From positions 42,263-106,262 of the forward strand of contig JAHFFE010000002.1 of NCBI GenBank assembly GCA_023248155.1: a stretch of 64,000 bases of DNA, read 5' to 3'. The position numbers and the translations under genes are program-made. The notes below the pieces were generated by a model, which made no database searches, was not told the origin of the DNA, and was given only the letters and a program-made list of their open reading frames with translations. This document shows, piece after piece, positions 44,642-64,000 of this stretch. Source of the stretch: Candidatus Omnitrophota bacterium. GTDB taxonomy: Bacteria > Omnitrophota > Gorgyraeia > 1-14-0-20-64-10. Positions within the stretch are counted from its first letter, which is position 1. The number at the start of each line of letters is the position of its first letter.

Positions 44642-45591
44642 ACTGTCAGCAGTGCAGCGAACATCTTTCGGCGTACCTTGACGGACTGCTGTCGGCCTCT
44701 GAGCGGCAGGCGCTGGAGAGCCATTGCGCCGGCTGCGCCCGGTGCGCGGCGGAACTCGCCGATCTTCAGAAAATCCTGATAGCGCTTCCTCAATTGCCGC
44801 AGCCGCCGGTTCCGGAAAATTTCCGCCGCCGTGTCTGGTCTGAGATCGACCGGAAAGGACGGCCGCTCGATTCCTGGCTCATTAAATTGCCGGTAGGCGC
44901 TTTGGCGACGGCGGCCGTTATTTTATTGGTCGCGCGGGTTTCGCAAGATACCATGCCGCAAATGAAGGAACAGGCCGTGCTTTCCGATGTTGCCGCTGCT
45001 CGTTTTGCCGAGCCGACTATGCGACAGCAGAAGGCAGCTCCGCTTGCTGAACAAGAAGAATCAGTATCTGCAAAGGTCATTAATCAAGATAAAAACAAAA
45101 TGGAGTTAAAAGACAAAGCCGATCGATCCGAAGAAACATTGGGAAAATCCCAATCGGTTTCAGCGGCCGCGTCGCCTCAATTAGCGCCGCAACAAAACAG
45201 GGCTTCTATGAAAATGTTGGAAACGGAAGATGGAGAACTTGTTTCTGGGAGGAAAATGTCCGCCGATAGTTCTTCGGCAGCCAGCTTGGTTGCCGATGGT
45301 TTGGAAGATAAAAAATCCAGTTTCGATTCTGCTTATGGCGAATCTGAGCGATGGTTTTTAAGAGTAGAAGATCCATCGGCTACGCAGGTTTTGGTTAGGC
45401 ATATCCTCCAAGAAATGAATGCTTTCAATATTCGGTCGATTTCGCCCTACATAACCGAATTTCAGGTCTCGTTCGGCCAACGCGATTCTTTAAAACAGTA
45501 TTTAAATGAACTGGGCGATCTTCAGCAAGTATCTTCGGAAGATTCCACAATCGAAACAATAACCATTATTGTTCTCCAGCGAACATCGTAA
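44638..45591 (+). CDS. Zinc-binding (ZAS-type) anti-sigma factor, single TM, periplasmic C-terminal domain
   Basis: ATGA overlap with the sigma gene. CQQC…HCAGCARC HxxxCxxC-type motif. TM at PVGALATAAVILLVA. Confidence 0.75.
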   Translation: MNCQQCSEHLSAYLDGLLSASERQALESHCAGCARCAAELADLQKILIALPQLPQPPVPENFRRRVWSEIDRKGRPLDSWLIKLPVGALATAAVILLVARVSQDTMPQMKEQAVLSDVAAARFAEPTMRQQKAAPLAEQEESVSAKVINQDKNKMELKDKADRSEETLGKSQSVSAAASPQLAPQQNRASMKMLETEDGELVSGRKMSADSSSAASLVADGLEDKKSSFDSAYGESERWFLRVEDPSATQVLVRHILQEMNAFNIRSISPYITEFQVSFGQRDSLKQYLNELGDLQQVSSEDSTIETITIIVLQRTS

Positions 45592-45598
45592 ATTTTTG

Positions 45599-45624
45599 GG
45601 AACTTTTTCTTCCGCCCGGTGTCT
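45599..45624 (+). promoter_or_regulatory. ECF-type promoter P2 (GGAAC-N17-GTCT) before the precursor-MNIO operon
   Basis: GGAAC at 45599-603, GTCT at 45621-24. About 55 nt including the 5' UTR and GGGAGG Shine-Dalgarno are nearly identical to P3. Confidence 0.6.
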
Positions 45625-45653
45625 GCATCAGTAGAAAAGGGAGGAATAAACCA

Positions 45654-45863
45654 ATGAAAATTCCAGCGTCAGTGTTAGCGGTCATGTTGGTTGGATTGGG
45701 AAGCGTCGGCGTGATGGGCTGTGCCGCGCACCAGACTCCGACTGAAAAAGCACCCAAAAATAAACCGGACTCTGTTGAGCCGGCTGCCAACCCCCAACCC
45801 GAAACACCGAATCGCCCGAGTCGTTCTGCCGGTTATGAGTGTCGTGCCTGCGGAATGGGATAA
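45654..45863 (+). CDS. 69-aa secreted/lipobox peptide with C-terminal YECRACGMG; candidate RiPP precursor
   Basis: MKIPASVLAVMLVGLGSVGVMG|C signal + lipobox. Pro/Glu-rich linker, C-terminal CxxC. Immediately upstream of the DUF692 gene and behind the GGGAGG Shine-Dalgarno of P2. Confidence 0.55.
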   Translation: MKIPASVLAVMLVGLGSVGVMGCAAHQTPTEKAPKNKPDSVEPAANPQPETPNRPSRSAGYECRACGMG

Positions 45864-45865
45864 AA

Positions 45866-46738
45866 ATGGGGATTCCTCTCGTAGGGCTGTCGTTAATGCC
45901 GGAGGACCCCTTTCGTCAGGCGGCCTACCCTCTTTTTGAAGCGGGGGAAGTCGATGTTCTGGAATGGAGTTTTGATATGGGGTGGGCCGGCGCTCCGTTG
46001 CCTGAATGGATGGAGCAACTGCTCCATCTTTATGGGCAGCGGGGCCGCCTGCTGGGGCATGGAGTTTCATTTTCGCTCTTGTCCGGACAGTGGACCGACC
46101 GCCATCAGAGGTGGCTGCAATTATTATCGGAAGAAGCCACTCGCCACCGGTACCGGCATATCTCCGAACATTATGGATTTATGACGGCCGGAACTTACCA
46201 GAAAGGGGCTCCATTACCGGTCCCCAAAACTCCCGATACAGTTCGTCTCGGGCAGGACCGGTTGCGCCGGCTGGCCGAAGCGGCCGGATGTCCGGTCGGG
46301 CTGGAAAATCTGGCGTTTGCGTTTGGCGCTCATGATGTTTGGGATCAAGGTTCTTTTTTGGAAGAACTGCTGGAATCAGTGGATGGCTTTCTTCTGCTCG
46401 ATCTTCATAATCTCTACTGCCAGTCGGTAAATTTCAAAGCGCCTTGGACTGAATTAGTCGCGCAATACCCGCTCCATCGCGTTCGGGAGCTGCATCTTTC
46501 AGGCGGGTCCTGGTTCGCCGGTGAGCCGTCTTCCCGCTATGAACCGATCCGGCGCGATACGCACGATGGCGCTGTGCCCGAGGAACTTTTCGCTATGCTG
46601 CAGTCCATTTTGAAACGGGCTCCGGCGGTTGAAGCGGTAATTCTCGAACAGCTGGGCGATTCATTAGAGAGCGACGAATCGAAGGTTCGATTCCAGGCCG
46701 ATTACCGGAAAATTCGGGCGATTGTCCATGGACAATAA
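45866..46738 (+). CDS. DUF692 / MNIO (multinuclear non-haem iron oxidative) enzyme, MbnB/TglH/BufB-like
   Basis: Start at ATG 45866 (MGIPLVGLSL…), 3 nt after the peptide stop. HGVSFSL, SEHYGF, PVGLENLAFAF, LLLDLHNLYCQSVNF, VRELHLSGG and RRDTHDG match the conserved DUF692 TIM-barrel blocks. Confidence 0.8.
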   Translation: MGIPLVGLSLMPEDPFRQAAYPLFEAGEVDVLEWSFDMGWAGAPLPEWMEQLLHLYGQRGRLLGHGVSFSLLSGQWTDRHQRWLQLLSEEATRHRYRHISEHYGFMTAGTYQKGAPLPVPKTPDTVRLGQDRLRRLAEAAGCPVGLENLAFAFGAHDVWDQGSFLEELLESVDGFLLLDLHNLYCQSVNFKAPWTELVAQYPLHRVRELHLSGGSWFAGEPSSRYEPIRRDTHDGAVPEELFAMLQSILKRAPAVEAVILEQLGDSLESDESKVRFQADYRKIRAIVHGQ

Positions 46739-46934
46739 AACCTGCGAAGATAAAAACCTCGATAATTTCCAAAGCCGCTTGCTGGAGCTTATGCTGCAGC
46801 CGCTCTCGCAAGAACAGCGCTGGAGAGCTCTGAAAACAGACCCTCTTTTTATACCCTACCAGAACTACATCGCCTCATTTGATCCGCGCATGATGGAAGT
46901 GGCCGCGCAGATTATCCGGAAATGGACTGTTTAG
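46722..46934 (+). CDS. 70-aa protein resembling only the N-terminal (substrate-recognition) part of the DUF2063 MNIO partner
   Basis: Overlaps the MNIO 3' end by 17 nt. LDNFQSRLLELMLQP…YQNYIASF pattern resembles the DUF2063 N-terminus; the C-terminal domain is absent. Confidence 0.4.
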   Translation: MSMDNKTCEDKNLDNFQSRLLELMLQPLSQEQRWRALKTDPLFIPYQNYIASFDPRMMEVAAQIIRKWTV

Positions 46935-46937
46935 CCG

Positions 46938-46963
46938 GGAACTTTTTCCTCCGCCCGGTGTCT
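46938..46963 (+). promoter_or_regulatory. ECF-type promoter P3 (GGAAC-N17-GTCT) before the 639-aa secreted protein gene
   Basis: GGAAC at 46938-42, GTCT at 46960-63; near-duplicate of P2 including UTR and Shine-Dalgarno. Confidence 0.6.
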
Positions 46964-46991
46964 GCATTAGTAGAAAAAGGGAGGAACGACG

Positions 46992-48911
46992 ATGACTATT
47001 CAAACAAAGATTTTCGCGATTGCGGTGGCAGCGGTAGCGTGGATTACAGCCGGCCAGTCTTTTGCCGAGGCAACGACCGAGCCGTATTCATTGGAGCAGG
47101 GCCGTTATTCCGCGGTTGTCGACGGGGAAAAAGTTAAAATTCAGGCGGCGCTGGAATTCAAGGTGCTTGAAGACGGCCTGATCCAGATTCCGGTTTCGTT
47201 TGGCGGCGCCGAAATTCTGGATCTGAAATTATCCGGAGGATCCGCCGTGTTGGCGGTTGAGAACGACCAATACACGGTTCGGATTAGCCGCAAAGGAACC
47301 GTTCGGCTGACGGCCATGTTGATCGTGCCGTTGTCGCGCAATGCGGATCAGGAAGGGTTTTATCTCGAGATTCCGCAGGCGGTTTTTTCTTTCTGCACGG
47401 TCACGGTTCGGCGCGCCAGCGTGCAGTTAAGTCCTAATTATGCGGCCGCCGGAACCAGTCAGACCCGCGGCGATCAGACGATCATTACGCTGCCGTTGGG
47501 CTTAAAGCGGCAGGCCCAGGTTTTCTGGACGGTCCGCCCAATCCAGGAAACGCCGAAAACAACAGAACCGGTGGAGCCGGTTTATTTGGCGAATCTGCAG
47601 CTGCTGGGCACGCTGGAAGAAGAAACATTCCGTTGTTTGGCCACCGTTGATTTGCATCTGCTGCAGGGCGAATTAAAAACGGCTTTGTTCGAGCTGCCTT
47701 CGGGCTGGACCGTTACCGGGGTGCGCGGGGGTTCCGGCATTGCGGATTGGAAGACCGAGGCGGCCGGTTCGAATCAGCAGATCACGGTTATTTTCAACCA
47801 GCCGTTCAAGGAGGGGAACCTTCGTCTGCTGATTGATGCCGAACAACCGCTGAGCAGCGGCAGTGCCTCGGTTTCTTTGCCGAGTATTATTCCGGTCGGC
47901 GCAAAACGGTTAACGGGCCAATTGGCGCTGGCAACGGCCACGGCCATGGAATTGAAAGATCCGGTGATGGAAGGGGTCAAGCGGATCGATGTCCGGGAAT
48001 TGCCCGACGAATTGCGCGCGATGGCCAACGCGCCGGTCGTGGCGGCATTTCGTTATATGGAAGCCCCTTACCATGTGACGACCCAATTAATCCGTCCCGA
48101 AGAATTGCCGGTATTGGTGGCGATCGCTGAATCGGGAGAGTTAATCACGGTGGCTGCGCCGACGGGTGAAACCATTACGCGCGCGATTTATCAAATCCGT
48201 AATAACAAAAAAACAACGCTGAGCGTCACACTGCCGGCGGGGTCTACGCTCTGGTCGGTGCTGGTCGACCAGCGTCCGGTGAAGCCGTCGGCCGGACCGC
48301 GCGGGCAGATTCAAATTCCGATCATGAACAACCATGGTCCGGAAACGGTCTTCCCGGTGGAAATCGTCTATGTCCAGAAAACCGGTTCATTGAAATCGTT
48401 ACTTGGCCAAGTCCGTTACGAAGGTCCCGGCCTCGATATCCCGGTCACCGTTTCGTCCTGGAAACTGCTTTTACCCGACGGATTGATAAAGATCGGTTAT
48501 TCCGGCAATGTAGAAGCTGGTTTTTCGGTGAACACGGTGCCAGTCGAATTGGCTGCTTATCGCGATGTTTCGGCGAATGCGGCGCTCCGACGGGACTCTG
48601 CCCGATGCCAAAAAGTATTAGCCGCTGCTCCGGCAGCGCAGTCGTTGGCCGATTGCGAGTATAAGGTAAAGGAAGAATTTCAGGAGGTGGTTGGTAAAAC
48701 TCAGCAAACCGGCGTGCTGCCGTTCCGGATTTCAATTCCGCAGAGCGGCCGCGTTTACCGGTTTGGCCGGTTGCTGGCCGTCAACGAGCCGATGTCGGTC
48801 CAGATTAATTATGTCCGGACATCCGCAATGCCGTTCGCCAGCGGCGGAATGGTGTTTGTTGGATTGATGGGGCTGGCGGGTGTTGCCCGGCTGGTTCGTG
48901 CCAAGAAGTAA
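46992..48911 (+). CDS. Large secreted beta-rich protein with C-terminal TM anchor; member of the ECF regulon
   Basis: Signal peptide MTIQTKIFAIAVAAVAWITAGQSFA, C-terminal GGMVFVGLMGLAGVARLVRAKK. No catalytic motif recognised. Confidence 0.55.
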   Translation: MTIQTKIFAIAVAAVAWITAGQSFAEATTEPYSLEQGRYSAVVDGEKVKIQAALEFKVLEDGLIQIPVSFGGAEILDLKLSGGSAVLAVENDQYTVRISRKGTVRLTAMLIVPLSRNADQEGFYLEIPQAVFSFCTVTVRRASVQLSPNYAAAGTSQTRGDQTIITLPLGLKRQAQVFWTVRPIQETPKTTEPVEPVYLANLQLLGTLEEETFRCLATVDLHLLQGELKTALFELPSGWTVTGVRGGSGIADWKTEAAGSNQQITVIFNQPFKEGNLRLLIDAEQPLSSGSASVSLPSIIPVGAKRLTGQLALATATAMELKDPVMEGVKRIDVRELPDELRAMANAPVVAAFRYMEAPYHVTTQLIRPEELPVLVAIAESGELITVAAPTGETITRAIYQIRNNKKTTLSVTLPAGSTLWSVLVDQRPVKPSAGPRGQIQIPIMNNHGPETVFPVEIVYVQKTGSLKSLLGQVRYEGPGLDIPVTVSSWKLLLPDGLIKIGYSGNVEAGFSVNTVPVELAAYRDVSANAALRRDSARCQKVLAAAPAAQSLADCEYKVKEEFQEVVGKTQQTGVLPFRISIPQSGRVYRFGRLLAVNEPMSVQINYVRTSAMPFASGGMVFVGLMGLAGVARLVRAKK

Positions 48912-52430: not shown

Positions 52431-52507
52431 GATTAGAACTCCCAGTCTACCCAGCAGGGCGTTGGTTGTCAATCATACCCCCCTCTGCTAGAATCAGTTT
52501 CTTGACC

Positions 52508-54937
52508 ATGAGTTATCCATTCTCCGATATCGAATCCAAATGGCAGAAGCGCTGGGAAGAACAGGGCGCTTTCCGTGCCGTTATGGGCAAGTCCGCCTCT
52601 TCCAAAAAATATTATCTGCTGGAGATGTTCCCTTATCCGTCGGGCCGCATCCATATGGGCCATGTCCGCAACTATACCATCGGTGATGTGATGGCCCGGT
52701 TTCGCAAGGCGCAGGGCTGCCAGGTGCTGCACCCGATGGGGTTCGACGCGTTCGGGCAGCCGGCCGAGAACGCCGCCATCAAGAAAGGCGTTGATCCGGC
52801 CGCCTGGACCTATGACTGCATCGCGCAGATGCGCGACGGCCTTAAAAAACTGGGCATCTCCTACGACTGGGACCGCGAGCTGGCCACCTGCGACGCCGAT
52901 TATTATCGGTGGAACCAGTGGATCTTCCTGAAAATGGCCGAGAAGGGGTTGGCTTATCGCGCCAAGTCGCCGGTCAACTGGTGCCCCTCCTGTCAGACAA
53001 CGCTGGCCAATGAAGAGGTGATCGACGGCGAATGCTGGCGCTGCCATTCCAAAGTCGACCCGAAACTGCTCGAACAATGGTTTTTAAAAATCACCGCGTA
53101 TGCCGAACCGCTGCTCAACGATCTTGATAAATTAGCCCACTGGCCCGACCGCGTCCGAGCCATGCAGCGCAATTGGATCGGTCGCAGCGAAGGCGTTGAG
53201 ATTTTCTTTTCGGTGAAAGGGACCGGCGAGAAATTGCCGGTTTTCACAACGCGCCCCGATACGATTTTCGGCGCGACTTATGTGGTGCTGGCGCCCGAAC
53301 ATCCACTGGCCAAAAAATTAAGCGCCGGAACGCCGCAGGAAAAACCGGTCGCTGCGTTTGCTGAAGCGGTGGCACGCCGTTCCAAAATAGAGCGGACCGC
53401 CGAAGGCGTAAACAAGCAGGGGGTTTTCACGGGCGGCTATGCCGTGAATCCGGTCAACGGCGAAACGATCCCTATCTGGATCGCCGATTATGTGCTGATG
53501 GAGTACGGCACCGGCGCGATCATGGCGGTTCCGACGCACGATCAGCGCGATTTTCTGTTTGCCAAAGAACAAAAACTTCCAATGCGCGTCGTTATTCAGG
53601 GGGGAGAGGGCGGGGGTGAGGGGGCTTATGTAGGCGAAGGGGTGTTGGTCAACTCAGCGCAGTTCAGCGGTCTGAAAAATACCGACGCCAAAAAGAAAAT
53701 CGCGCTCTGGATGGAAGAAAAAGGGCACGGCAAGCGGGTCACGCAATGGCGTCTGCGCGACTGGCTGATCTCGCGCCAGCGCTGCTGGGGAACGCCGATC
53801 CCGATGATCTATTGCGCGGCCTGCGGCGTGGTGCCGGTGCCGGAAGATCAACTGCCGGTCCGCCTCCCTGAAAAACTTCCGATTACCGGAGAGGGCGGCT
53901 CTCCGTTGGCCAAGGTCAAAGAGTTTGTCGAAACCACCTGTCCGTGCTGTAAAAAACCGGCCCGGCGCGAAACCGATACGATGGCCACCTTTTTTGACTC
54001 CTCCTGGTATTTTCTGCGCTTTTGTTCGCCGAAAGAAACCCAACTGCCGTTTGATCCGAAAGAAGCCGCGCACTGGATGCCGGTTGATCAATACATCGGC
54101 GGCATCGAGCATGCGATTCTGCATCTGCTTTACTCGCGCTTCTTCACCAAGTTTCTGAAAGATATCGGCCTGTTGTCTGTCGACGAGCCGTTCACGCGCC
54201 TGTTAACGCAGGGCATGGTGCTCAAAGACGGCGAGGTGATGTCGAAGTCGCGCGGCAATGTGGTTGACCCTGACGGTGTCATTGAAAAACATGGCACCGA
54301 CGCGATGCGCCTTTTTATTTTATTTGCGGCGCCCCCCGAAGACCAGCTCGAATGGAACGACAGCGGCATCGACGGCGTCGATCGTTTTTTAAATCGCGTC
54401 TGGAATTTAGTTGAGCGTCTGGATGGTTATGCGCCGACCGAATCCAATGGTACTGAAACCAAAGAACTGCGCCGCATTACGCACGCCACGATCAAGCGGG
54501 TAACCGATGAGGTCGACGCGTTCAAATTCAACACCGCCATCAGCGCGTTGATGGAGATGCGTAACGCAATTGAAAAATCATGGGGAAAAGTTCCCACCGA
54601 TGCCGCGCGCGAGTCGGTCGAAGCGCTGGTCTGTTTACTGAATCCGTTCGCGCCGCATATCGCCGAAGAGCTTTGGCAGAAGTTGGGCCACTCCGACCTA
54701 CTGGCAATCCGCACTTGGCCTGCATACGATCCGACATTGCTGACGCAGTCGGAAGTTTCAATCATCCTTCAGGTCAACGGCAAACTTCGCTCTAAAATTA
54801 CACTACCCAAAGATGCGCCGGCCGAGCAGGTAAAGGCATCGGCGTTGGCCGATCCTGCTGTTCAGAAATGGCTGGAAGGGAAAGCCCCGCGCGACATCAT
54901 CATCGTTCCAAACCGCCTCGTCAACCTCGTCATTTAA
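52508..54937 (+). CDS. leuS: Leucyl-tRNA synthetase
   Basis: Start at ATG 52508 (MSYPFSDIESKWQKRWEE). HMGH and KMSKS (VMSKS) class I motifs; CP1 editing domain. Confidence 0.9.
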   Translation: MSYPFSDIESKWQKRWEEQGAFRAVMGKSASSKKYYLLEMFPYPSGRIHMGHVRNYTIGDVMARFRKAQGCQVLHPMGFDAFGQPAENAAIKKGVDPAAWTYDCIAQMRDGLKKLGISYDWDRELATCDADYYRWNQWIFLKMAEKGLAYRAKSPVNWCPSCQTTLANEEVIDGECWRCHSKVDPKLLEQWFLKITAYAEPLLNDLDKLAHWPDRVRAMQRNWIGRSEGVEIFFSVKGTGEKLPVFTTRPDTIFGATYVVLAPEHPLAKKLSAGTPQEKPVAAFAEAVARRSKIERTAEGVNKQGVFTGGYAVNPVNGETIPIWIADYVLMEYGTGAIMAVPTHDQRDFLFAKEQKLPMRVVIQGGEGGGEGAYVGEGVLVNSAQFSGLKNTDAKKKIALWMEEKGHGKRVTQWRLRDWLISRQRCWGTPIPMIYCAACGVVPVPEDQLPVRLPEKLPITGEGGSPLAKVKEFVETTCPCCKKPARRETDTMATFFDSSWYFLRFCSPKETQLPFDPKEAAHWMPVDQYIGGIEHAILHLLYSRFFTKFLKDIGLLSVDEPFTRLLTQGMVLKDGEVMSKSRGNVVDPDGVIEKHGTDAMRLFILFAAPPEDQLEWNDSGIDGVDRFLNRVWNLVERLDGYAPTESNGTETKELRRITHATIKRVTDEVDAFKFNTAISALMEMRNAIEKSWGKVPTDAARESVEALVCLLNPFAPHIAEELWQKLGHSDLLAIRTWPAYDPTLLTQSEVSIILQVNGKLRSKITLPKDAPAEQVKASALADPAVQKWLEGKAPRDIIIVPNRLVNLVI

Positions 54938-55254: not shown

Positions 55255-58200
55255 ATGAAACACCAATCTAGTCACCCTATGGGGCCGCGAACCCCATTTT
55301 TATTTGGCCGTTTTTTGAGCGCTTTGCTAATCATTAGCATGGTGCTGACGATCCCGCATGCCTATGCCGACACTCTGCGCGTTTCCAACGCCGGTCAGGA
55401 AGAGAATCCAGTTCGCACCCTTCTGGAAACCGAATTATCCGCCGACCAGAAGGCGGATGCTGAAACTTCTCTTTCCATAAAACAAGCAGTCTCCGAGGAA
55501 GACGAAGACGAAAATGAGTTTGAATGGAGAATGCCGTTGCCGAAACAAGCGGGTGATTTCGAGCTGAACGAAGGTTTTCTGTCGGATGACCATCCGGCAG
55601 TTCGGGTTGTATCCGAGCGGCTGAACGCGCTTCTTCCTGATCTGAAACCGGATGAACGGCCTCAATTGCGGGTCCTGGCTTCCCGCGGCCAGGGGATCCA
55701 GGCCCTGATGTTTGAGGATGGCACCCTCGTGGTAAGCCCAGAATTGGTAGATGTGGTCGAATATGAAGAGGAGTTGGATTTTGTCCTCCTGCATGAAATC
55801 AACCACTGGCATCGAAAACATATTAAGCAAACGGAGCGACTTCTGGAAAGCGGAGGAATTCTCACTGCCGTAGTGCGCTCGTTGGGATTAGACAGGTACC
55901 AGGAGTATGAGTCGGATATGGCCGCTTTCTGGGGGTTGCTCGATCGCCGGCGCAGCGGGTTGGGGGCCGTGATTTTTATGGAACGTCTGGAAAAGGAACG
56001 CCTGGAGAAAAAGAGGATCATGGTGGATTGGGATCTCGCGCACGGGACAATGCGGGACCGGATCCTGAATATGAAGAGTTTGATCCCATTGGTGCATATG
56101 CAATATCTAGACGCACCCCTGCATCCGATGGACCCGTCGGTCCGGCAGTCGCTCTCCTCCCTTCCGATTGAAGGGTTAATGGATCGATTGATGAGGATTC
56201 CGAGCCGGCAATCCGGAGTTCAAGAAAAGCATCTGGAGGCGCTGGAGCCGGAAATCCGGGCCCTCTCTCCCGAACTTCGTCTTCAGTTTATCGGTTATGC
56301 GGTGGGCCTGATGGATCAAGCGTTTGCTCATGCGCTGACGGAAATGGAATTGAGAGTAATTAATCTTGACAGCGAGAGAAACGCGGCGGGCGATGTGATT
56401 TGGAGTAAGGAAGAATTGCGCCGTCTTTCTGAGGTGTCGGGTCGCGTGAACTATGCCCCGCGCGCTATACCGCGCTTTTTGCACTTATGGAATGAAACCG
56501 TTTCCGGGATGCTCTCTGGAGTTTCTCCTGAGGTAGCGATTTTCCTGAACCAGCTTCTTTACAAACTGAATATGGAAGGACGTCTTTATAACATCCTGGA
56601 GGATCAAACCTTTGAAGGCCTAAAAGAAGTTCTTCTATCGGAAACGGATGCGGAACGGGAATCGGTGGATGAAGAGCTTCTGCAGATCAAAAACCATCTC
56701 CTGGCACAACGGGAAAGCTATTTATCCGTTTTGGAATTGCCAAAATTGGAGAATGCTTTGGAGGTGTTGGAAAATCCGGTTTCAAGGGCGGAATGGGTGG
56801 ATCGGCTCGGAAGAATGTCCCGAATGGGAGCTGGAATCAACGCCGGTTTGTCGTTTATGGTGGAGCAGATCTCTTCCACTATGGCTCAGCGGCCCGGAAG
56901 AGATTTTCTTTCGGAAACGGGGGAGCTGCTGGCTGCGTTTCGTGACCTGATGAGCCGATCCGAAGTCCTGCGTCAGGAAACCGTGGTCCGGCATATGAAC
57001 CGGGTTTGGACCCAGCTTTTTATGAGACAGGCGGCGCTTCTGCATACCGAAGCAGCGGGCCTGGAAGAAGGGTTCCATAAGACGGTTGCGGAGGTGGCCC
57101 GGCGGCATGGTTTTCAGGAGGATGTCACCGGGATCAGAGAAGAGCTTAGAGTCCATCCGGAGATGAAACCCTGGGTTGGAAAATACTTTGATGCGTTTAC
57201 TCAGCAGGAGTCGCTGTTTCGACGGTTGGATCAGATTGAGGAAGACCTTTCAAAAATCGATGTAAAGGATCGAAAAGCCGCCTCCGCACCTTATCAAATC
57301 CTGTTGCTGGAGGCCGCGAATTTGCTCAACGGTGTTCCCGAGATTGTTCCTGTGGAAGGCGAACTACGGAAAAGAATCGATCGGGCTGAATTCAAGATCC
57401 GGTATTTGAACAGGGTGGTGGGGCTGCGGGTCAATTATAGAGATTTCACGCTCTGGGGACCAGAGCAAGCCCTGTTGCCCGATCCGATTTCGATGGATGA
57501 TCTGCGGTTTCTGGTTGGCTGGTGGGCTTCTGTGGCGGAGGACAGTCGGGAGTATCAGGAAGGGGTTAAGCTCCTCTCACAAAAGGAACAATGGATGGAT
57601 CATTGGAAGAAAGTGGCCAGAGTGGAGGAAGTGAATGCTTTGGCGGACACATTGACGAGTCCCAGTGAAGCGGCGCAATCCATAGGGACGGTCATCCACA
57701 GCGGTCTTGCCGGGTCCCAAATCCATTCCGAAGAAATCAGGAAGGTTTTTTACGATTTGGCGCAAGAAGTATTGGAGCGTGACATGGCCCAGGCAAAGAG
57801 CGAGGAGGTGTTTTTTGGTTTATTGGATGGTTACGCCCAGCGGTGGCCGGTTCGTCCTAATGCTGAGGTGGTACGAAAAGGGGTGCAGTTCCTGAACGCT
57901 TCGAAAAGCACCGATCAACCCCTGATTTGGCAGAGGAGATTACTGTTGAGTTTCTTTGCCTCCGACCCGCTCATTCGACGTCAATTGGGCGAGTATTCAG
58001 TGCTTCAAATCGTTCAATCAGAGAGGGTCTCCTTCGATGACGCCTACGCGCTTTTGTTCGAGCGCTACAAACCGCAGGGAACGGCCGGTGGGTTGAGGGC
58101 CCTGAGGGCTTTGCTGGATCGGGCACATACCTACCCGGAACTGGACCGGTTGAAAGAGGCCGGCGCCGATTTCCTGAAGTTCCTGCAAAGTTCTCTGCTG

Positions 58201-61200
58201 GCTGGTGGAGCGGTGCTCGCGGAAGGGGGTGTGGAGCATTGGCTCGACGTCGGGGACCGATCCCAGCTTTTTCGATCTTTGATGGCCAGCGGGCAGGACG
58301 ATTGGCTGCTGCGCCGGCAGGTGGCTTCTTATTGGACGGGAATTTACAGCGAAATAATTAACTCCATGCTTATGAACAATTTCGAGCGCGACCTGCGCTA
58401 TTGGGACGACGCAGACGAAATCGAGGACTGGAGCGGCAGGAGTCCGTCTATCTCTGTGAACCGTGTCAGCCCGTTTGAGCTGGCCATGGACCGGATTTAT
58501 ATGTTGGGGGATCCCGAACGCTACGCCATGCTTCGAAAGCTGCTGGCGGATGAGGATGGTATTTTGCGCAGGGCCCGCCATGACCTGTTGGATGCTTTCC
58601 TGAACCAGCACCTGGATTCCAGCGGAGAGGAGCGGGCGGCTGAAGTGGTTTCTGAGGTGCTGGGGACAGTTCTCAAGATCATGCCCGAAGACGATCTGTT
58701 TTTGCTGGTTGCCCCGTTGTTGATGGATCGGATTGGCAACCCGCCGGAATCTCCCGCGGAACCGGCTGAAGCAAGCGTGGAGACGGAAGATTGGAGCCGG
58801 CGGATTGCGCTGCGACTGGCAAGGAGTGCCGGGCTTAGGAAGGGTCAGCGCCAGAATTTTGTGGAGACGATGGCGCCGGCGCTTGAAAGAAAGTTTTCCT
58901 GGTTCTTGCGGGGACACGGTCCGGATGTGACGCCCGACCCTGGAGCGGAGCGGGATCTTTTCTCGGTGGTTCCGCCGGAGTTTTACCAGAACAGAACGCA
59001 TCCGATGAGTCCGCTGGAGATGACTCTCGAGACGGCCCGCCAGCTGGGAGCGCCGGGGGTGCGGTTCCTTCAGTTGGTGGGGCAGACGGTCCGGCTTCCT
59101 GAAGATTACCGGAAGCAATTTCTGACCGTTTACGACAATGTAGAGGGGCAGTCTTTGCTGTCCGTCGCCGAAACGATCCGGAATCTTCTTCCAGAGTATG
59201 CCGGGCGGATTCAGCGGTTTGTGCGCCGTCTTGGAGGAGGCTCGATCTACACGGTATGGGAAGTAGAGGTCGTGGCCACCGAGGAGGAATATCCGGGCCG
59301 CGCCGGGGAGCTGGTCCGTGAGGCGGTGCGGGTTGTCAATCCGAACGCGCTGTATCGCTCGCGCAAATCGGTGCAGGTGATCCGGGACGCGCTGACCCAG
59401 CTGGCTCAAGAACAGCCGCAATCCGGCTATGCGCTGGCGCTTCCCATGGTGGATCTTCTGGAGGAGTGGATCGCGAAAGAGCTGGAGGACACTTCTTTTG
59501 AAGCCGATGATCAAGAGTTCCGGAGCCGCTGGAACGGCTGGGCCCCCGAAGGATTCCAGAAAACGGTAGTGGTCCCGCGAACCCTGCCCACTGGCATTCC
59601 GGAGATCCGACGGGCGGAGTTCCTGCCCGGGGAGAGCTTCACGTCCCTGGATTCGCTGGAGAACGCAGAACAGAGAGAGCTGGTTGCGTTGGCCAGTCAT
59701 TTTTATTTTCAACAGGTGGTGGATTCGGTTCAGCAAGTTTTGTCCGGGCAGAGAGAGGAGACCCTGATCCTCTCCGATATTTCTGTTGGGAATTTTCTGA
59801 GGACTTCCGAGGGACATCTGGGGGATCTGGACCGAGGGATGTTCTTGAAGTTTAATCGGACGGAGGCCGGGGTTCTCATGAATTTCAGCTTTGCCGCCAC
59901 GGTCCAACAACGGGCCGAGGTGTTGATCTCGCATCTCTGGACGCTGGACCTGAACCAGGCATCCTCCGAAGACCTTGCCCAGCGGGGGGTGAGCCCGGCC
60001 TCCATGGCGGCGGAGATTGCGGGCGGATTGGACCCTGTCGGCTCCATGGAGAAAACGGCTTTGGATGTAATTTTGGGCATTCAAAACCGTGGGTTGCGTG
60101 TTCCATTGCAGTTCCAGTTATTGTTCAAGAATTTCAATGCTTTAAGAGAGATCGCTGACGGGGAGATGAGCCCGCAGGCCCGTTTCGGTTCTTTGGAAGC
60201 GGCTCTGCAGTATCTCCCCACCGCTGGCCAGGAAGAAAACGGAACTGATCAGCTGGTGAATGGTGCGCGCGGCCAGCTGATTCTTTACCATCGGTTTAGA
60301 GCCGCCGCTACCACCTCGGAAGCGCTTAAACAATATGGTTTATACGAAGCAGCTAGGATCAAACCCCGGTTAGAAAAAATTCTTTCTTCCGCTGCGCTAG
60401 GAGGACTTAAGTATGCGGTCATTAATTTAATGGAACATGGAAATGGCGGCGACCTGGAAATTTTCTTAACCCAGCCCGATGCCGACGGCATCTCTCGCGT
60501 GACGGTCCGTCTGGCCGATGATGGCCCCGGGATTGCGGATCCTCGTGAATTGCTGGCACGAAGCATCGAGGCGCATTCCGGCGTGCGGGCAAGTCGGTAT
60601 GAAGAACCGCGCGGATACGGCTGGAAAAATATCGCCGCCCCGTCCGCTGAAATGACAGTCGAGTCGGGCCATGTGAAATGGCGACTTTTCAAAGAGGCAA
60701 ATAATCTTCGTTTTAAATTGGACGAGGAACCCTCCGATGTGAGTAAAGGCACTGTGATTACTGTGGTTTACGAATCCACCGCTGCCGGGCAGGAAGAAAC
60801 AACATGGAAGGGGCCGACCGATCCGGTTGATGCGGTAACCCGGTTGGTGAACGCATTGATCGCGCAGGGATATAAAGGAGAACAGAGGCTTACTTTAGAC
60901 CGGACATCAACACTGCTCAAGCGATCGCCAACACAGCAAGCGCTTTCTTTGAATCCGGGGCTGGTTGCCGAGATGAACAGCCTCTTGAAAAGAGTGGCTG
61001 CAGTAAAAGAACCACGGATGAAATTATTGAAACCGGTTTGGACAAAGTTCCACGGATCAGAATTAGCAGTCGTCATTATTCAAAAAGGACCCGTTCCGGT
61101 TCGCACCGATCCCGTTGAAGTGGTATCCCGCTTGGTGGATGCATTGATTGCGCAGCAGGCCAGCGGAGAACGGCAGCTTGCTTTAAAACAGACAGTACGG

Positions 61201-64000
61201 CTTTTGAATGGGGTACCCAGCCAAGCGACTCTGTCCAGGAATTCAAAGGTTCTCACTCGTATAAATGAACTGTTAGAAATTGTGGCAGCGGATGAACAAC
61301 CTTCCGAGCCGCAGTTGATACCGGCTTGGGAGAAGTTCCATGCATCGCGGCTGAAATCGGTGGTCATCGCGAAAGAAGTGCGCACTGCCGGCCAGGAGGA
61401 GAGTATCTGGGAGGATATTTCGCAGGCATTTGGAATTTCAAAGGATTCGCTTCTGGAGCGCTTATCGGAGCGGGATAGAAATCAGCTAAGAAGGGCAACC
61501 GATATCACTGCTCCTAAAATGATTGTTCTTTACGCGCGGATTTTTGGTGTATCGATCCCGGCGCTTCAGCAAACGCAGCTGGCGCAAAGAATCGTAGCCG
61601 CTCGAATTGTTACAGAAAAGCCCATGCCGGCAAGAGTTCGGAGGGCCTACGACTCTTTGGAGCGAAGCCTGCTTGATTCCGATATTGATAGCGGAGTCCG
61701 GCAAATGGCGCAGAATGTCCGCGAAGAATTGGCAGAACTCTCTTCGGAAGATCCAGCCGTCCGGACGCTGAGGCAGCTGGTTCAGCCGAAGGATTATTCA
61801 CAACAGCAGGAAACTATTTTGGAAAGAGCGGCTCGATGGGTGGCGGGGGCTCTGGACCCTGAATCTCAGAATATAGATGAAACCGTCGCCGATCTTCGGG
61901 CCATTACGTCATCTCACTCCATAGAACAGATGGCCAAAGTCCTTAAGGCGGATCAGGCGTTCTCATTGGGTGAGCCCTGGCGGCTGAAGGCTCTGTTGAG
62001 AAGCCTGCTTCAAACAGACAGCTTCTTTTTTCCGGCTCGGTTTTCAGGCGGCAGAATAGTTCCCCTGCTGGTTGTTGTTGATTCCGACAGTGCGTATCCA
62101 TTGCCGCGGTTTGCCGGCAATGCCGCCCATGAATACGCCCATGCTCTGTTGATCCGCCGTCCGTTTTGGAAGGAACAGGTCACGGGAACTTCGATGGCGG
62201 ATTGGATTACCCAAGCCGTAGAATTACTTGCTGCGGATCGAATCGCTTTGGAAAACAGCGAGAATCCGGACCCCTATTTGTCTGTCTTGTATCGTGAGGG
62301 AGAGCGACTTGCCTTGCAGGGGTCTTCCTCGGAATGGGAGTCAATGCTGAGAGAATTAGATCAATTCCCTGATTCAAAGCGCTGGTACTTGCAAGGTGTT
62401 TTCATTGGCGGGTTGGCCAAAGGACTTGGAAAGCGGGCGGCCGATCAAACAGCGCGGTCGGCGGAACCGTTCGCAGCGCATGAACTGGGACTCCGTTTTA
62501 TTTCCTCTTTGGCGGATGCGATTGCTGAATCCGGCGGGCGTTCTCCGATCGAGGTCTTGATTAAAACGGCACAAGGTTTCCCGGAGATCGCTCCCGCCGG
62601 CCAGGAAGAGCGACAAGTTCTTCGATTCTATCCGGACCAGGGCGGAGCAAAAATAATTGCAGAACAAGGAACAAGTTGGACACCACTCTCCCCGGTTTCT
62701 CCTCAACGATTGATTTTACCCAACGATCCAGGCTGGCGTCTTGCCGTCGAAGAGCCCCGGCTTCGACAGCTGGCGGAATTTCTGTTCCAGCAATTCCAAA
62801 CTAATATTGCCCAGGGATATCCGCTTCAAACGGGGGATAGAAATATCGTAGAAGCCATTCGAGCTGTTTATCCCATTCCTGGTTTAGAACCATACGAAGG
62901 AATGCTTACTCAGAGTAATTTCATGAATCTGATTGATCTGCTGGACAGAGGGCTGTTTCTTCGGGCTGGCGCGTCCATTCAATTATTCGCAGGCGGAAAG
63001 ATTGCTGCTTACATTACGCTGGATCTTCCGTGGCAAGAAATTTCATATCTGGGCGGGCGTGCCAGCACGTGGCTTGTCTCCACGAAACTTCAAATCGATC
63101 AAAGAGATCCGTACTCGTTCATTTACGGGTCTAGCTTCATGAACCTGAGCCTGTACGATCCCGCGGTTGGCCAGCAAGCGATGGAGTTCCAGTATCAGGA
63201 ATTTTTATCTAAGGGAAAAAGCCGAGGTGTTCCACCGGCGGCTCTCCAGCTGATGCAGCAGCTTCATGACCGTGATCCGGTAATATATCAGCGGTTATTT
63301 GGTGTTGACAGCTCGAAACAAGAGGAAATTAACCACGCGCGTGATTTTGTCTGGGCTGCCTATTTCTATCCGATTGTTGTTGACGCTAAAGAAGGGGCGA
63401 CGCAGCCCTTTGTCGCGGAAGCGGTCATTCGACCCGATTCCTTTTTGGACCGGACGGTCTGGAATCGTTCCAAGCGAAGAGCTTCAGACCTTGTATTCTC
63501 TGCTCGAAATATTGTAGAACTCTCCGGGCAGACGCAGGGATTGGTCGATACACTGCAGGCATTAAGAGATAATCAGGGGGAAGATTGGGCGTACGGTTAT
63601 TTCTGGCTCTATCTGTTCCAAAAAACGGAGGAAAGGTTGCATCGGCCCGGAACGGTTGCCGCGGGGCATGATCGGACAGCGGCAGAATCAGTTTTTGATT
63701 TTTTGAAGGGGGAAGGGTTCGCCGATCTTCAGCAGATAGAAGATCATCTGCGGATGGTGCCCAACGCTCACGGATCCAGAGCGCTGGGAATTGCCCAACG
63801 GCTCCATGATGAAAATTTTCTGACCGAAGCCGAACGCGTCGCTATTCTGGAAAAAAGTGAACGAGGAGAACTGGTTTCCCTGGGTGTTCGCCAGACCGCC
63901 GCCGGCCAGGAAGAAAATGCAGTGCAAGCAATTACCGCCGACGAAATCCGCGCGCGGTTTGCCGATATTTCGGTGCAGGATGGGGAAACCGGATATTTGG
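55255..64000 (+). CDS. Giant secreted multidomain protein; at least 2915 aa within the window and continuing past the right edge
   Basis: Manual frame-1 translation from ATG 55255 to 64000 shows no stop; frame confirmed against the +1-offset track ORFs at 56648 and 57707. N-terminal signal peptide (MKHQSSHPMGPRTPFLFGRFLSALLIISMVLTIPHAYA|D). HEINH at about 55792 and HEYAH at about 62128. GHKL-like motif block (DDGPGI…GYGW) at about 60520-60620. Two ~96-aa tandem repeats at 60784-61402. Recurring AGQEE motif. Absent from the track because it has no stop; track ORFs on the minus strand here (e.g. 58018..60084) are antisense artefacts. Confidence 0.8.
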   Translation, partial: MKHQSSHPMGPRTPFLFGRFLSALLIISMVLTIPHAYADTLRVSNAGQEENPVRTLLETELSADQKADAETSLSIKQAVSEEDEDENEFEWRMPLPKQAGDFELNEGFLSDDHPAVRVVSERLNALLPDLKPDERPQLRVLASRGQGIQALMFEDGTLVVSPELVDVVEYEEELDFVLLHEINHWHRKHIKQTERLLESGGILTAVVRSLGLDRYQEYESDMAAFWGLLDRRRSGLGAVIFMERLEKERLEKKRIMVDWDLAHGTMRDRILNMKSLIPLVHMQYLDAPLHPMDPSVRQSLSSLPIEGLMDRLMRIPSRQSGVQEKHLEALEPEIRALSPELRLQFIGYAVGLMDQAFAHALTEMELRVINLDSERNAAGDVIWSKEELRRLSEVSGRVNYAPRAIPRFLHLWNETVSGMLSGVSPEVAIFLNQLLYKLNMEGRLYNILEDQTFEGLKEVLLSETDAERESVDEELLQIKNHLLAQRESYLSVLELPKLENALEVLENPVSRAEWVDRLGRMSRMGAGINAGLSFMVEQISSTMAQRPGRDFLSETGELLAAFRDLMSRSEVLRQETVVRHMNRVWTQLFMRQAALLHTEAAGLEEGFHKTVAEVARRHGFQEDVTGIREELRVHPEMKPWVGKYFDAFTQQESLFRRLDQIEEDLSKIDVKDRKAASAPYQILLLEAANLLNGVPEIVPVEGELRKRIDRAEFKIRYLNRVVGLRVNYRDFTLWGPEQALLPDPISMDDLRFLVGWWASVAEDSREYQEGVKLLSQKEQWMDHWKKVARVEEVNALADTLTSPSEAAQSIGTVIHSGLAGSQIHSEEIRKVFYDLAQEVLERDMAQAKSEEVFFGLLDGYAQRWPVRPNAEVVRKGVQFLNASKSTDQPLIWQRRLLLSFFASDPLIRRQLGEYSVLQIVQSERVSFDDAYALLFERYKPQGTAGGLRALRALLDRAHTYPELDRLKEAGADFLKFLQSSLLAGGAVLAEGGVEHWLDVGDRSQLFRSLMASGQDDWLLRRQVASYWTGIYSEIINSMLMNNFERDLRYWDDADEIEDWSGRSPSISVNRVSPFELAMDRIYMLGDPERYAMLRKLLADEDGILRRARHDLLDAFLNQHLDSSGEERAAEVVSEVLGTVLKIMPEDDLFLLVAPLLMDRIGNPPESPAEPAEASVETEDWSRRIALRLARSAGLRKGQRQNFVETMAPALERKFSWFLRGHGPDVTPDPGAERDLFSVVPPEFYQNRTHPMSPLEMTLETARQLGAPGVRFLQLVGQTVRLPEDYRKQFLTVYDNVEGQSLLSVAETIRNLLPEYAGRIQRFVRRLGGGSIYTVWEVEVVATEEEYPGRAGELVREAVRVVNPNALYRSRKSVQVIRDALTQLAQEQPQSGYALALPMVDLLEEWIAKELEDTSFEADDQEFRSRWNGWAPEGFQKTVVVPRTLPTGIPEIRRAEFLPGESFTSLDSLENAEQRELVALASHFYFQQVVDSVQQVLSGQREETLILSDISVGNFLRTSEGHLGDLDRGMFLKFNRTEAGVLMNFSFAATVQQRAEVLISHLWTLDLNQASSEDLAQRGVSPASMAAEIAGGLDPVGSMEKTALDVILGIQNRGLRVPLQFQLLFKNFNALREIADGEMSPQARFGSLEAALQYLPTAGQEENGTDQLVNGARGQLILYHRFRAAATTSEALKQYGLYEAARIKPRLEKILSSAALGGLKYAVINLMEHGNGGDLEIFLTQPDADGISRVTVRLADDGPGIADPRELLARSIEAHSGVRASRYEEPRGYGWKNIAAPSAEMTVESGHVKWRLFKEANNLRFKLDEEPSDVSKGTVITVVYESTAAGQEETTWKGPTDPVDAVTRLVNALIAQGYKGEQRLTLDRTSTLLKRSPTQQALSLNPGLVAEMNSLLKRVAAVKEPRMKLLKPVWTKFHGSELAVVIIQKGPVPVRTDPVEVVSRLVDALIAQQASGERQLALKQTVRLLNGVPSQATLSRNSKVLTRINELLEIVAADEQPSEPQLIPAWEKFHASRLKSVVIAKEVRTAGQEESIWEDISQAFGISKDSLLERLSERDRNQLRRATDITAPKMIVLYARIFGVSIPALQQTQLAQRIVAARIVTEKPMPARVRRAYDSLERSLLDSDIDSGVRQMAQNVREELAELSSEDPAVRTLRQLVQPKDYSQQQETILERAARWVAGALDPESQNIDETVADLRAITSSHSIEQMAKVLKADQAFSLGEPWRLKALLRSLLQTDSFFFPARFSGGRIVPLLVVVDSDSAYPLPRFAGNAAHEYAHALLIRRPFWKEQVTGTSMADWITQAVELLAADRIALENSENPDPYLSVLYREGERLALQGSSSEWESMLRELDQFPDSKRWYLQGVFIGGLAKGLGKRAADQTARSAEPFAAHELGLRFISSLADAIAESGGRSPIEVLIKTAQGFPEIAPAGQEERQVLRFYPDQGGAKIIAEQGTSWTPLSPVSPQRLILPNDPGWRLAVEEPRLRQLAEFLFQQFQTNIAQGYPLQTGDRNIVEAIRAVYPIPGLEPYEGMLTQSNFMNLIDLLDRGLFLRAGASIQLFAGGKIAAYITLDLPWQEISYLGGRASTWLVSTKLQIDQRDPYSFIYGSSFMNLSLYDPAVGQQAMEFQYQEFLSKGKSRGVPPAALQLMQQLHDRDPVIYQRLFGVDSSKQEEINHARDFVWAAYFYPIVVDAKEGATQPFVAEAVIRPDSFLDRTVWNRSKRRASDLVFSARNIVELSGQTQGLVDTLQALRDNQGEDWAYGYFWLYLFQKTEERLHRPGTVAAGHDRTAAESVFDFLKGEGFADLQQIEDHLRMVPNAHGSRALGIAQRLHDENFLTEAERVAILEKSERGELVSLGVRQTAAGQEENAVQAITADEIRARFADISVQDGETGYL
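60784..61402 (+). repeat. Tandem ~288-nt (about 96-aa) intragenic repeat inside the giant gene
   Basis: Unit 1 …TDPVDAVTRLVNALIAQGYKGEQRLTL…WTKFHGSELAVVII…; unit 2 …TDPVEVVSRLVDALIAQQASGERQLAL…WEKFHASRLKSVVI…. Each unit is bounded by A-G-Q-E-E (gccgg(g/c)caggaagaa). Confidence 0.7.

Follow-up and report, generated by a model that had tools for sequence, protein, structure and literature searches.

The 64,000-nucleotide (nt) stretch of Candidatus Omnitrophota DNA analysed here (contig JAHFFE010000002.1, positions 42,263 to 106,262; hereafter the window) ends within a giant gene encoding a protein of 3037 amino acids (aa), P0001, in which the pentapeptide AGQEE recurs six times. Comparison with relatives indicates that AGQEE is this protein's version of a junction tag found across the clade, one that lies in short, flexible, indel-prone linkers before every module of the protein. 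An open frame runs from 55228 to where the window stops, the ATG lies at 55255, and the stop would fall beyond the window, at 64366-64368; the complete product is known from an NCBI/ENA contig of 350,776 nt. The same gene, again of 3037 aa and with 0 mismatches in 8746 nt, is present in a second assembly (L006; ENA ERZ27280021); the long open reading frame (ORF) is therefore not an assembly artefact, and that origin is ruled out. The features of the gene are given below, with reference to the homologue P0002 and to P0287, a gene at the same locus in L007.

55255..64000, + strand: giant gene P0001, an open frame from its ATG; its coding sequence has 9111 nt, of which the window takes in the first 8746
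55255..55368, + strand: predicted Sec signal peptide (aa 1-38), with a positively charged n-region, the core FLSALLIISMVLTI and a site between AYA and D
55369..55389, + strand: conserved leader DTLRVSN after the signal peptide; D[ST]LRV or LRP(E)Q in relatives
55390..55404, + strand: tag 1, AGQEE (aa 46-50), matched by position by AGAEE of P0002 and AGQEE of P0287
55405..60222, + strand: module 1 (aa 51-1656), comprising an acidic linker, then an M48 peptidase and a UbiB/ABC1-like kinase with a long helical stretch between them
55552..56244, + strand: BepA-like M48 zinc metallopeptidase domain (aa ~100-330), with HEINH at 55792-55806 (aa 180-184)
57055..57069, + strand: AGLEE inside module 1 (aa 601-605), a possible seventh, variant tag of uncertain status
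59005..60222, + strand: UbiB/ABC1-like atypical kinase domain, the most conserved part of module 1, ending ...FGSLEAALQYLP
60223..60237, + strand: tag 2, AGQEE (aa 1657-1661), where stand-alone homologues stop
60238..60783, + strand: module 2 (aa 1662-1843), GHKL ATPase-like (histidine-kinase-like)
60784..60798, + strand: tag 3, AGQEE (aa 1844-1848)
60799..61386, + strand: module 3 (aa 1849-2044), a tandem pair of ~96-aa repeats not separated by a tag
61387..61401, + strand: tag 4, AGQEE (aa 2045-2049); the module-4 indel relative to P0287 has its left breakpoint here
61402..62595, + strand: module 4 (aa 2050-2447), of no recognisable family, with a second HExxH (HEYAH, 62128-62142)
62596..62610, + strand: tag 5, AGQEE (aa 2448-2452); the module-4 indel relative to P0287 has its right breakpoint here
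62611..63900, + strand: module 5 (aa 2453-2882), of no known family, 74% identical in P0287
63901..63915, + strand: tag 6, AGQEE (aa 2883-2887)
63916..64000, + strand: module 6, the C-terminal module of 150 aa (aa 2888-3037), cut by the window end

The initial annotation of this DNA had reported six copies of the motif, and six were found. The degenerate nucleotide pattern GCNGGNCARGARGAR, run over the 64-kb window, matches at 55390, 60223, 60784, 61387, 62596 and 63901, always on the + strand and in a common reading frame (aa 46, 1657, 1844, 2045, 2448 and 2883 of P0001). The literal gccggN form matches five of these, copy 2 starting with GCT, and five of the positions reported earlier are borne out, the remaining one, 61388, having to read 61387. 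In shuffled versions of the window 0.05 matches to GCNGGNCARGARGAR are expected, and none of 100 shuffles held six; from the composition of P0001 itself 0.0076 copies of AGQEE are expected, giving a Poisson p of 2.6e-16 for six. As had been observed, the first copy lies just after the signal peptide, 8 residues past the predicted site (AYA, followed by DTLRVSN-AGQEE), and copies 3 and 4 bracket the pair of ~96-aa tandem repeats, which share 43/90 identical residues. The AGLEE at aa 601 falls within the clade consensus described below and lacks a counterpart in P0002. By our own rough estimate, about 0.03 matches to AG[ALM]EE are expected in P0001 from composition; the copy may be a seventh tag or may have arisen by chance.

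Among the six 15-nt copies four positions vary, each of them the third of a codon, and the 10 first and second codon positions are constant throughout (p = 0.0037), while the DNA on either side of the copies is unrelated. Similarly, the nine GEKSYPA copies of locus L002, eight in the giant relative P0081 and one in the gene adjacent to it, differ at synonymous sites only. Since only wobble positions vary and the flanking DNA is unrelated, the conserved object is the peptide and not the DNA, and the codon pattern shows the tag to be selected as a peptide, under purifying selection. The motif had been described as conserved at both nucleotide and amino acid level; this holds for the peptide, whereas the nucleotide identity is merely what the peptide imposes. 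The suggestion that the copies are linkers generated by module duplication does not stand, because a self-search of P0001 finds the modules mutually unrelated, the tandem repeat inside module 3 excepted, and the DNA around the copies is dissimilar too.

The proposal that the motif marks module boundaries is upheld by three independent tests, based on the ends of stand-alone homologues, the breakpoints of module gain and loss and the limits of Pfam domains, all of which agree. Approximately 115 of the best 150 homologues of module 1 are stand-alone proteins of ~1450-1650 aa that end 0-5 residues past the sequence EAxxYxP, and their ends correspond to the exact start of tag 2 in P0001 (...EAALQYLP-T-AGQEE). 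In P0002 (39% identical) homology ends at the tag, and AGAEE stands at the equivalents of tags 1 and 2; tag 2 also aligns with AGAEE in a further relative, L005g, and with AGLEE in P0287. Module 2 is present in P0001, P0287 (65% identity) and L005g (28%), flanked on both sides by A-G-x-E-E in all three, with tag-adjacent residues and linker lengths that differ (indels of 0-13 aa).

The comparison with P0287 is the most detailed, the two proteins being 65-81% identical in their shared parts. P0287 reads leader - AGQEE - 12 aa - AGLEE - module-5 paralogue - AGLEE - module 2 - AGQEE - module 3 - AGQEE - module 5 - AGQEE - module 6. It lacks module 1, in place of which it carries the module-5 paralogue (24% identical), and it lacks module 4 along with one tag copy. 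Three of the four breakpoints between the two proteins fall on tags 2, 4 and 5 of P0001, and the fourth, left of module 1, falls on P0287's own AGLEE, 12 residues after tag 1. Tags 1, 3, 6 and the merged 4/5 are unchanged between the two and the P0287 copy at tag 2 is AGLEE, while the residues next to the tags show substitutions and 5-13-aa indels. Among the proteins examined, no Pfam domain was found to span a tag. In P0011, a CheR domain (976-1153) lies between tags at 946 and 1205, a class-I methyltransferase domain (3982-4153) between tags at 3947 and 4208, and the M48 and ABC1 domains between those at 1587 and 3146; in P0081, the Response_reg and tRNA_edit domains are each confined to one module, and in L004g HATPase_c ends 11 aa ahead of a tag. 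At the level of sequence comparison, these data show that the tag coincides with the boundaries of autonomous modules and that gain, loss or replacement of entire modules between relatives takes place at a tag.

Within the clade the tag follows the consensus [A/T/K/P]-A-G-[A/Q/M/L]-E-E (24 instances in six proteins), in which the G and the first E are invariant and A precedes G in 20/24. Homologues keep the motif where P0001 has it, in the form A-G-[Q/A/L/M]-E-E. The alignments further show that giant relatives sharing module 1 have replaced this tag with private tags of their own at the same boundaries, the tag being homogeneous within a lineage and unrelated in sequence in other lineages. 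The tags of individual proteins are as follows.

P0081: GEKSYPAG, 8-9 copies, module 1 flanked at 1365 and 2919
P0011: G[STA]RL[SA], 9 copies, module 1 flanked at 1587 and 3146
P0013: [RK]SE[AV]R, 5 copies, module 1 flanked at 1963 and 3533
P0025: K[SA]SSAG[GS]AE, at 2392 and 3960
P0026: DKAMLS, at 801 and 2309
P0053: RAELR, at 110 and 1675
P0027: AGME, at 68 and 1601
P0008: G[AM]EE, 4-5 copies

In a shuffle test of the two windows that flank module 1, 6 of 21 multi-module proteins reached p <= 0.05 (binomial p = 4e-4). As a separate observation, P0013 carries in-frame VGAPLAGARS.GQ... copies together with DSRFRGNDK at aa 72-90, 428-445 and 575-590; these look like translated palindromic repeats of the repetitive extragenic palindromic (REP) type and are distinct from its RSEAR tag.

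Tags go together with a signal for export. By a crude hydrophobicity criterion, 7/10 tag-bearing module-1 proteins have a signal-peptide-like N-terminus versus 9/126 others (Fisher p = 8e-6); P0002 and P0027 look signal-peptide-like and fall under the threshold. In P0001 the Kyte-Doolittle maximum over 12-mers is 2.78, aa 1-63 are 81% identical in P0287, and we infer cleavage of the signal peptide between AYA and D. The proteins of the clade share a leader grammar, in which the signal peptide is followed by D[ST]LRV or LRP(E)Q and then by the first A-G-x-E-E within ~5-15 residues. It is found in the window (55369-55389) and at L003 (5271-5753 and 14212-15104), L004 (from 12569) and L005 (from 5839). 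That differing exported proteins have this grammar in common suggests a shared sorting or processing pathway.

Tags also occur outside module-1 proteins. At L003, a WD40 protein of 1363 aa starts with a signal peptide, after which comes ALRNQQ...TGLEE...AAGLEE...AAGMEE, and a 160-aa gene in the position of the giant gene consists of a leader, a tag and one module. At L002, the gene directly upstream of P0081 carries GSGEKSYPAQ ~210 aa before its stop. This gene (L002 1-9998) is a second giant, of at least 3489 aa and with faint beta-propeller matches, and ends 2 nt before the start of P0081.

The initial annotation had placed an HExxH protease-like domain in the same polypeptide, and a Peptidase_M48 domain was indeed found in P0001. 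It scores 25.0 bits against Pfam PF01435 (cutoff 20.3). Across 24 diverse members of the module-1 family no variation is seen in the H/E/H of HExxH, in the third-ligand motif R..E...D or in an HG further downstream; in P0001 the third-ligand motif reads DRYQEYESD, which aligns with SRxxExxAD of PDB 3c37. A profile of the domain matches PDB entries 3c37 (2.6e-14), BepA (2e-8) and Ste24p (8.5e-5), as well as HtpX. An AlphaFold2 (AF2) model of aa 39-335, built from 20 sequences, has predicted local distance difference test (pLDDT) values >90 in the M48 core, and its best folds are 3c37, BepA and ZMPSTE24 (Foldseek against 3c37: probability 1.0, template modelling score 0.58). From profile and model alike, the M48 assignment is solid, and the domain is apparently catalytically complete. 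It resembles the soluble periplasmic M48 proteins BepA, YcaL, LoiP and Geobacter 3C37 in the HExxH, the R..E..AD motif, the downstream His and the fold, and differs from them in being fused to ~1300 more residues ending in a UbiB-like kinase; unlike the BepA group, module 1 has no TPR domain.

The kinase-like part is weaker in P0001 itself (Pfam ABC1 11.6 bits, cutoff 22.9) than in the homologous domain of P0011 (46.3 bits), and NCBI gives the homologue P0005 the name AarF/UbiB family. Word-indexed protein searches had little sensitivity (1-2 matches), and the family came to light through an exhaustive profile search, which with the C-terminal 417 aa of module 1 returned 483 relatives. No module-1 relatives were found in two scans of one genome per species, and two metagenome scans added nothing beyond the L005 contig, which was known already. 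Most family members are stand-alone proteins without a signal peptide; by annotation, one comes from Candidatus Peribacteraceae, of the candidate phyla radiation (CPR), and one from Omnitrophota. Module 1 represents a widespread and apparently new family of ~1450-1650 aa that fuses a BepA-like M48 peptidase, through a helical middle, to a UbiB/ABC1-like kinase; no earlier description of it was found in the literature searched. Plant plastoglobules likewise pair ABC1 kinases with an M48 peptidase. Within the family, P0007, P0009, P0019 and P0105 share a C-terminal domain of ~70-100 aa that opens with GGID[LFM]N after a Pro/Asp/Ser-rich linker, with no private tag.

Apart from Peptidase_M48, which alone exceeds its cutoff, Pfam gives only weak ABC1 and HATPase_c signals on P0001, and NCBIfam recognised no family over the whole protein. 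Module 2 reaches 23.6 bits against HATPase_c (E = 7.5e-5), below the cutoff of 26.4, and a paralogous module in L004g reaches 37.1 bits. For modules 3-6 no Pfam, NCBIfam or PDB sequence match was found, nor any recognisable relative except in P0287. The final module after the last tag is 134-157 aa long in every clade member. When the C-terminal modules of P0001, P0002, P0008, P0027, L005g and the small L003 gene were compared, they were barely similar, with a marginal match only between P0002 and P0008 (E ~5e-4); this module may be a conserved terminal domain with an anchoring or export role. A single-sequence AF2 model of aa 1640-2470 was too poor for domain limits (pLDDT 39.7), and the coil in which it places four tags carries little weight.

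Our explanation, held with moderate confidence and drawn from sequence patterns and analogy, is that the tags are endopeptidase recognition sites that split an exported mosaic polyprotein into its modules. P0001 would be a Sec-exported mosaic giant protein in which each cassette-like module is headed by a tag; an endopeptidase would read the tag and cut the polyprotein into separate modules, as happens in viral polyproteins or in toxins of the MARTX (multifunctional autoprocessing repeats-in-toxin) type. The cut would fall between G and the variable residue, with small residues before it and L, M, A or Q after it. The enzyme might be the BepA-like M48 domain of module 1, acting in trans too, or another genome-encoded protease. 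Since the junctions all carry one tag, a side effect would be that recombining or deleting between tags keeps the frame and respects module limits, and such exchange at a shared tag matches the module differences between P0001 and P0287. Endoproteolysis is judged most likely on account of the selection on the peptide, the variable linkers and the lineage-private tags, a combination also seen in viral polyproteins and MARTX toxins; as in the polyprotein class, the same consensus site is found at every module junction of P0001. The tags are in coil in both AF2 models, one of them of low confidence, which would leave them accessible. Zinc endopeptidases commonly prefer a small P1 and a hydrophobic P1' residue, a preference that P/T/A-A-G followed by L/M/A/Q resembles, and by this analogy the M48 domain is a reasonable candidate. 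It is a candidate only as a trans-capable enzyme, because there are tagged relatives without HExxH and tags in other proteins. The sequence ...EVRTAGQEESIWEDISQAFGISK would be an example of a tryptic peptide of P0001 that spans a tag.

Several points weigh against endoproteolysis. We infer proteolysis at the tags wholly from indirect signs. A copy straight after the signal peptide would free a peptide of only ~9 aa, which is odd for module separation. The variable residue is uniform within a protein, which could reflect copying of junctions instead of coevolution with an enzyme, and P0287 mixes AGQEE and AGLEE. P0287, L005g and L004g carry 2-7 tags each (6-7 in P0287 and L005g) and have no HExxH and no Pfam-detectable protease domain. 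In the AF2 model of aa 39-335, tag 1 is in coil (pLDDT ~50) and is not placed in the M48 active site, and the model therefore lends no structural support to self-docking. About half of the multi-module module-1 proteins (P0014, P0022 and P0009 among them) lack a detectable private tag, and the private-tag rule is therefore common, not universal. ATP-dependent folds, kinase-like and GHKL-like, would be unexpected outside the cytoplasm unless the modules enter another cell.

The tag might also be recognised and left uncut, serving as a handle for a bound partner such as a chaperone, part of a secretion or translocation system, an anchor in the envelope or an enzyme that modifies the protein, with P0001 working as a single chain. 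Such a handle would accord with the header logic of P0001, where a tag heads every module, the first included, and none was found after the last module, and with the signal peptide, LR(V/P) leader and tag that several different exported clade proteins share; selection on the peptide and action in trans are as compatible with binding as with cleavage. We nevertheless think it unlikely. The stand-alone homologues mark the modules as autonomous proteins, and free swapping is easier to tolerate when modules work separately. In other giants the first tag comes only after an N-terminal region of 130-585 aa, so the header logic is not general, and the differing chemistry of the private tags (GEKSYPAG, GSRLS, RAELR) better fits an evolvable protease pocket.

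Strict self-processing, in which the N-terminal HExxH (M48) domain of P0001 would cut its own chain at each AGQEE, had been put forward in the initial annotation. The M48 domain in the chain, with its apparent catalytic completeness, keeps the idea alive, as does the resemblance, from general knowledge, of A-G followed by L/M/A/Q to metalloprotease substrates; all ten tag-bearing proteins found via module 1 carry the M48 domain, by construction. The idea is weakened by P0287, L005g and L004g, which have tags and no HExxH, and by the tags in the L003 WD40 protein and in the giant gene upstream of P0081. From the tagged relatives without HExxH and the tags in other proteins it follows that the reader of the tag can act in trans, and P0287 and L005g make clear that self-processing in cis is not the general rule. 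Most module-1 proteins, moreover, stand alone, without tags and without a signal peptide, and the M48 domain therefore has another primary role. Together with the failure of AF2 to dock tag 1 in the active site, these points leave strict self-processing quite unlikely.

A functionless peptide at a recombination joint, the 15-nt repeats being microhomologies or scars of in-frame cassette exchange, is improbable. The breakpoints between P0001 and P0287 do lie at tags, one tag copy was lost along with module 4, the interval between leuS and comEA holds 160, 1564, 2379 or 3037 aa in relatives, and among the six copies the Ala codon is GCC in 5/6 and the Gln codon CAG in 6/6. Variation at wobble positions only (p = 0.0037), seen also in the synonymous differences among the nine GEKSYPA copies of L002, is however the opposite of selection for DNA identity, and where module identity is down to 28% the pentapeptide persists next to linkers that drift in residues and in length. 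Fifteen nucleotides with mismatches would be very short for a dedicated recombination site, and no recombinase or mobile-element genes were found next to the giant gene.

Chance, low complexity or a known motif, for which the identity of DTAGQEE with the Ras switch-II sequence and the purine-rich tag DNA (AGGAAG/AGGAGG) might speak, is refuted by the Poisson p of 2.6e-16, by a scan of P0001 that found neither the P-loop GxxxxGK[ST] (Walker A) nor NKxD, by the lack of any in-frame start codon found after the copies, and by the tags of other lineages, which are not purine-rich.

Particular candidates were rejected individually. The likeness of T-A-G-Q-E-E to the Ras-type G3 box (switch II) is a coincidence, P0001 having no P-loop and no NKxD; this identity means that word searches for the tag in literature and databases are swamped by Ras, and Ras switch II (DTAGQEE) gave the sole matches to the motif in the literature. 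A transglutaminase or pyroglutamate site is ruled out because Gln is not conserved; in relatives it is replaced by A, L or M, and Gln chemistry is therefore not required. Internal translation starts and Shine-Dalgarno pausing are rejected for want of an in-frame start codon after the copies. Against target-site duplications or transposon scars stand the wobble-only divergence, the deep conservation and the lack of mobile-element genes. The internal copies do not behave as signal peptidase I sites, no hydrophobic segment preceding them and P, N or K standing at -3. Double-glycine leader processing by C39 is likewise rejected: neither Pfam nor NCBIfam gave a C39 match in P0001, the sites are internal and repeated, and A precedes G in 20/24.

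Polyproteins with repeated sites are already known from viruses and MARTX toxins; nothing comparable to these tags was found in the literature searched. Viral polyproteins (cut by picornavirus 3C, potyvirus NIa or coronavirus Mpro) carry the same lineage-specific consensus at every junction, read by one protease. P0001 differs in being encoded by a cellular chromosomal gene between housekeeping genes, its modules are swappable accessories instead of a fixed replication set, and a tagged protein may lack the protease module. In multi-core precursors of ribosomally synthesised and post-translationally modified peptides (RiPPs) and other peptides (cyanobactin PatE, yeast alpha-factor, cyclotide), repeated recognition sequences flank the cargo and vary by pathway; in P0001, by contrast, the cargo would be folded modules of 150-1600 aa, and there is no adjacent macrocyclase or leader-binding enzyme.

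The MARTX toxins have a single protease domain that cleaves after Leu in the disordered junctions between effectors, a process that has been likened to viral polyprotein processing (PMC3153235), and several such inter-domain junctions share a minimal site (after Leu, with a small P1') (PMC3153235). P0001 is like them in being a very large secreted bacterial protein with interchangeable modules, a protease domain in the chain and a module repertoire that varies between strains. It does not belong to the class, as neither glycine-rich RTX repeats nor an InsP6-activated cysteine protease domain (CPD) were detected in the whole protein with Pfam and NCBIfam; its export apparently depends on Sec, through the N-terminal signal peptide, and its candidate protease is a zinc M48 enzyme. 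Its tag is longer, a strictly conserved 5-8 residues that differ between lineages, and processing would apply here by analogy. P0001 may thus work like a MARTX toxin without being one.

Closest in origin are the giant proteins of the same phylum, described as very long, multi-domain, exported Omnitrophota proteins with embedded peptidases, for which post-translational cleavage has been suspected (West-Roberts et al. 2023, 10.1101/2023.11.21.568195). C39 and S8 domains were proposed there, and the cleavage points were stated to be unknown, which prevented splitting of the proteins (10.1101/2023.11.21.568195). Whether such giants act as a single chain or as many products is an open question, and the missing cleavage points have blocked structure prediction and functional dissection (10.1101/2023.11.21.568195). 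The words 'linker', 'M48' and 'polyprotein' do not occur in that preprint, and 'motif' occurs once, in a cited title; all four are absent from a 2026 preprint on long Omnitrophota proteins. Neither describes the M48/UbiB module family or junction tags, and no literature pairing 'polyprotein' with Omnitrophota was found.

The tags are the first concrete, testable candidates for cut points in these giant bacterial proteins. Because they delimit autonomous modules, they can be used to split giant proteins for modelling, and giant proteins of any kind can be screened for the underlying rule, namely that a private tag recurs where domains meet. A fixed chromosomal locus with module swaps at tags would allow fast diversification of an exported, probably host- or prey-directed, arsenal. 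More tentatively, it is possible that Omnitrophota, and perhaps neighbouring uncultured lineages, make exported cassette polyproteins with private tags of 5-8 residues, exchange their modules in frame, and release them with a dedicated metalloprotease, for which the M48/UbiB protein is a candidate. If so, cassette polyproteins would be a bacterial counterpart of viral polyproteins that yields combinatorial effector sets, and there would be a simple rule for predicting cut points in bacterial giant proteins.

The giant gene is preceded by leuS (52466-54937), an 823-aa ORF with a TTG start, and is followed by comEA/comEC, as seen in L006; accA, cobA and nrdJ are further housekeeping neighbours in the window. 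Exact look-ups of P0001, the LeuRS protein and AccA matched no record. The named best matches of the LeuRS protein (62-71% identity) are all metagenome-assembled genomes of Candidatus Omnitrophica/Omnitrophota, including Velamenicoccus archaeovorus. An antisense ORF of 688 aa inside the giant gene (58018-60084, - strand) has no Pfam match and is taken as spurious because the homologues show coding on the + strand. The position between leuS and comEA is occupied as follows.

Window/L006: 3037-aa gene
L005: 2379-aa gene
L007: 1564-aa gene; the comEA side is seen and the contig begins before leuS
L003: 160-aa gene
L004: gene of at least 977 aa; the contig ends before comEA

Elsewhere in the window, 44057-48911 holds a RiPP-like cluster.

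44057-44641: ECF sigma factor
44638-45591: anti-sigma factor
45654-45863: 69-aa ORF
45866-46738: MNIO/ChrH-like maturase
46728-46934: 68-aa ORF
46992-48911: 639-aa protein without a family

The maturase matches the NCBIfam chryseobactin maturase family with E = 3e-102, below the cutoff.

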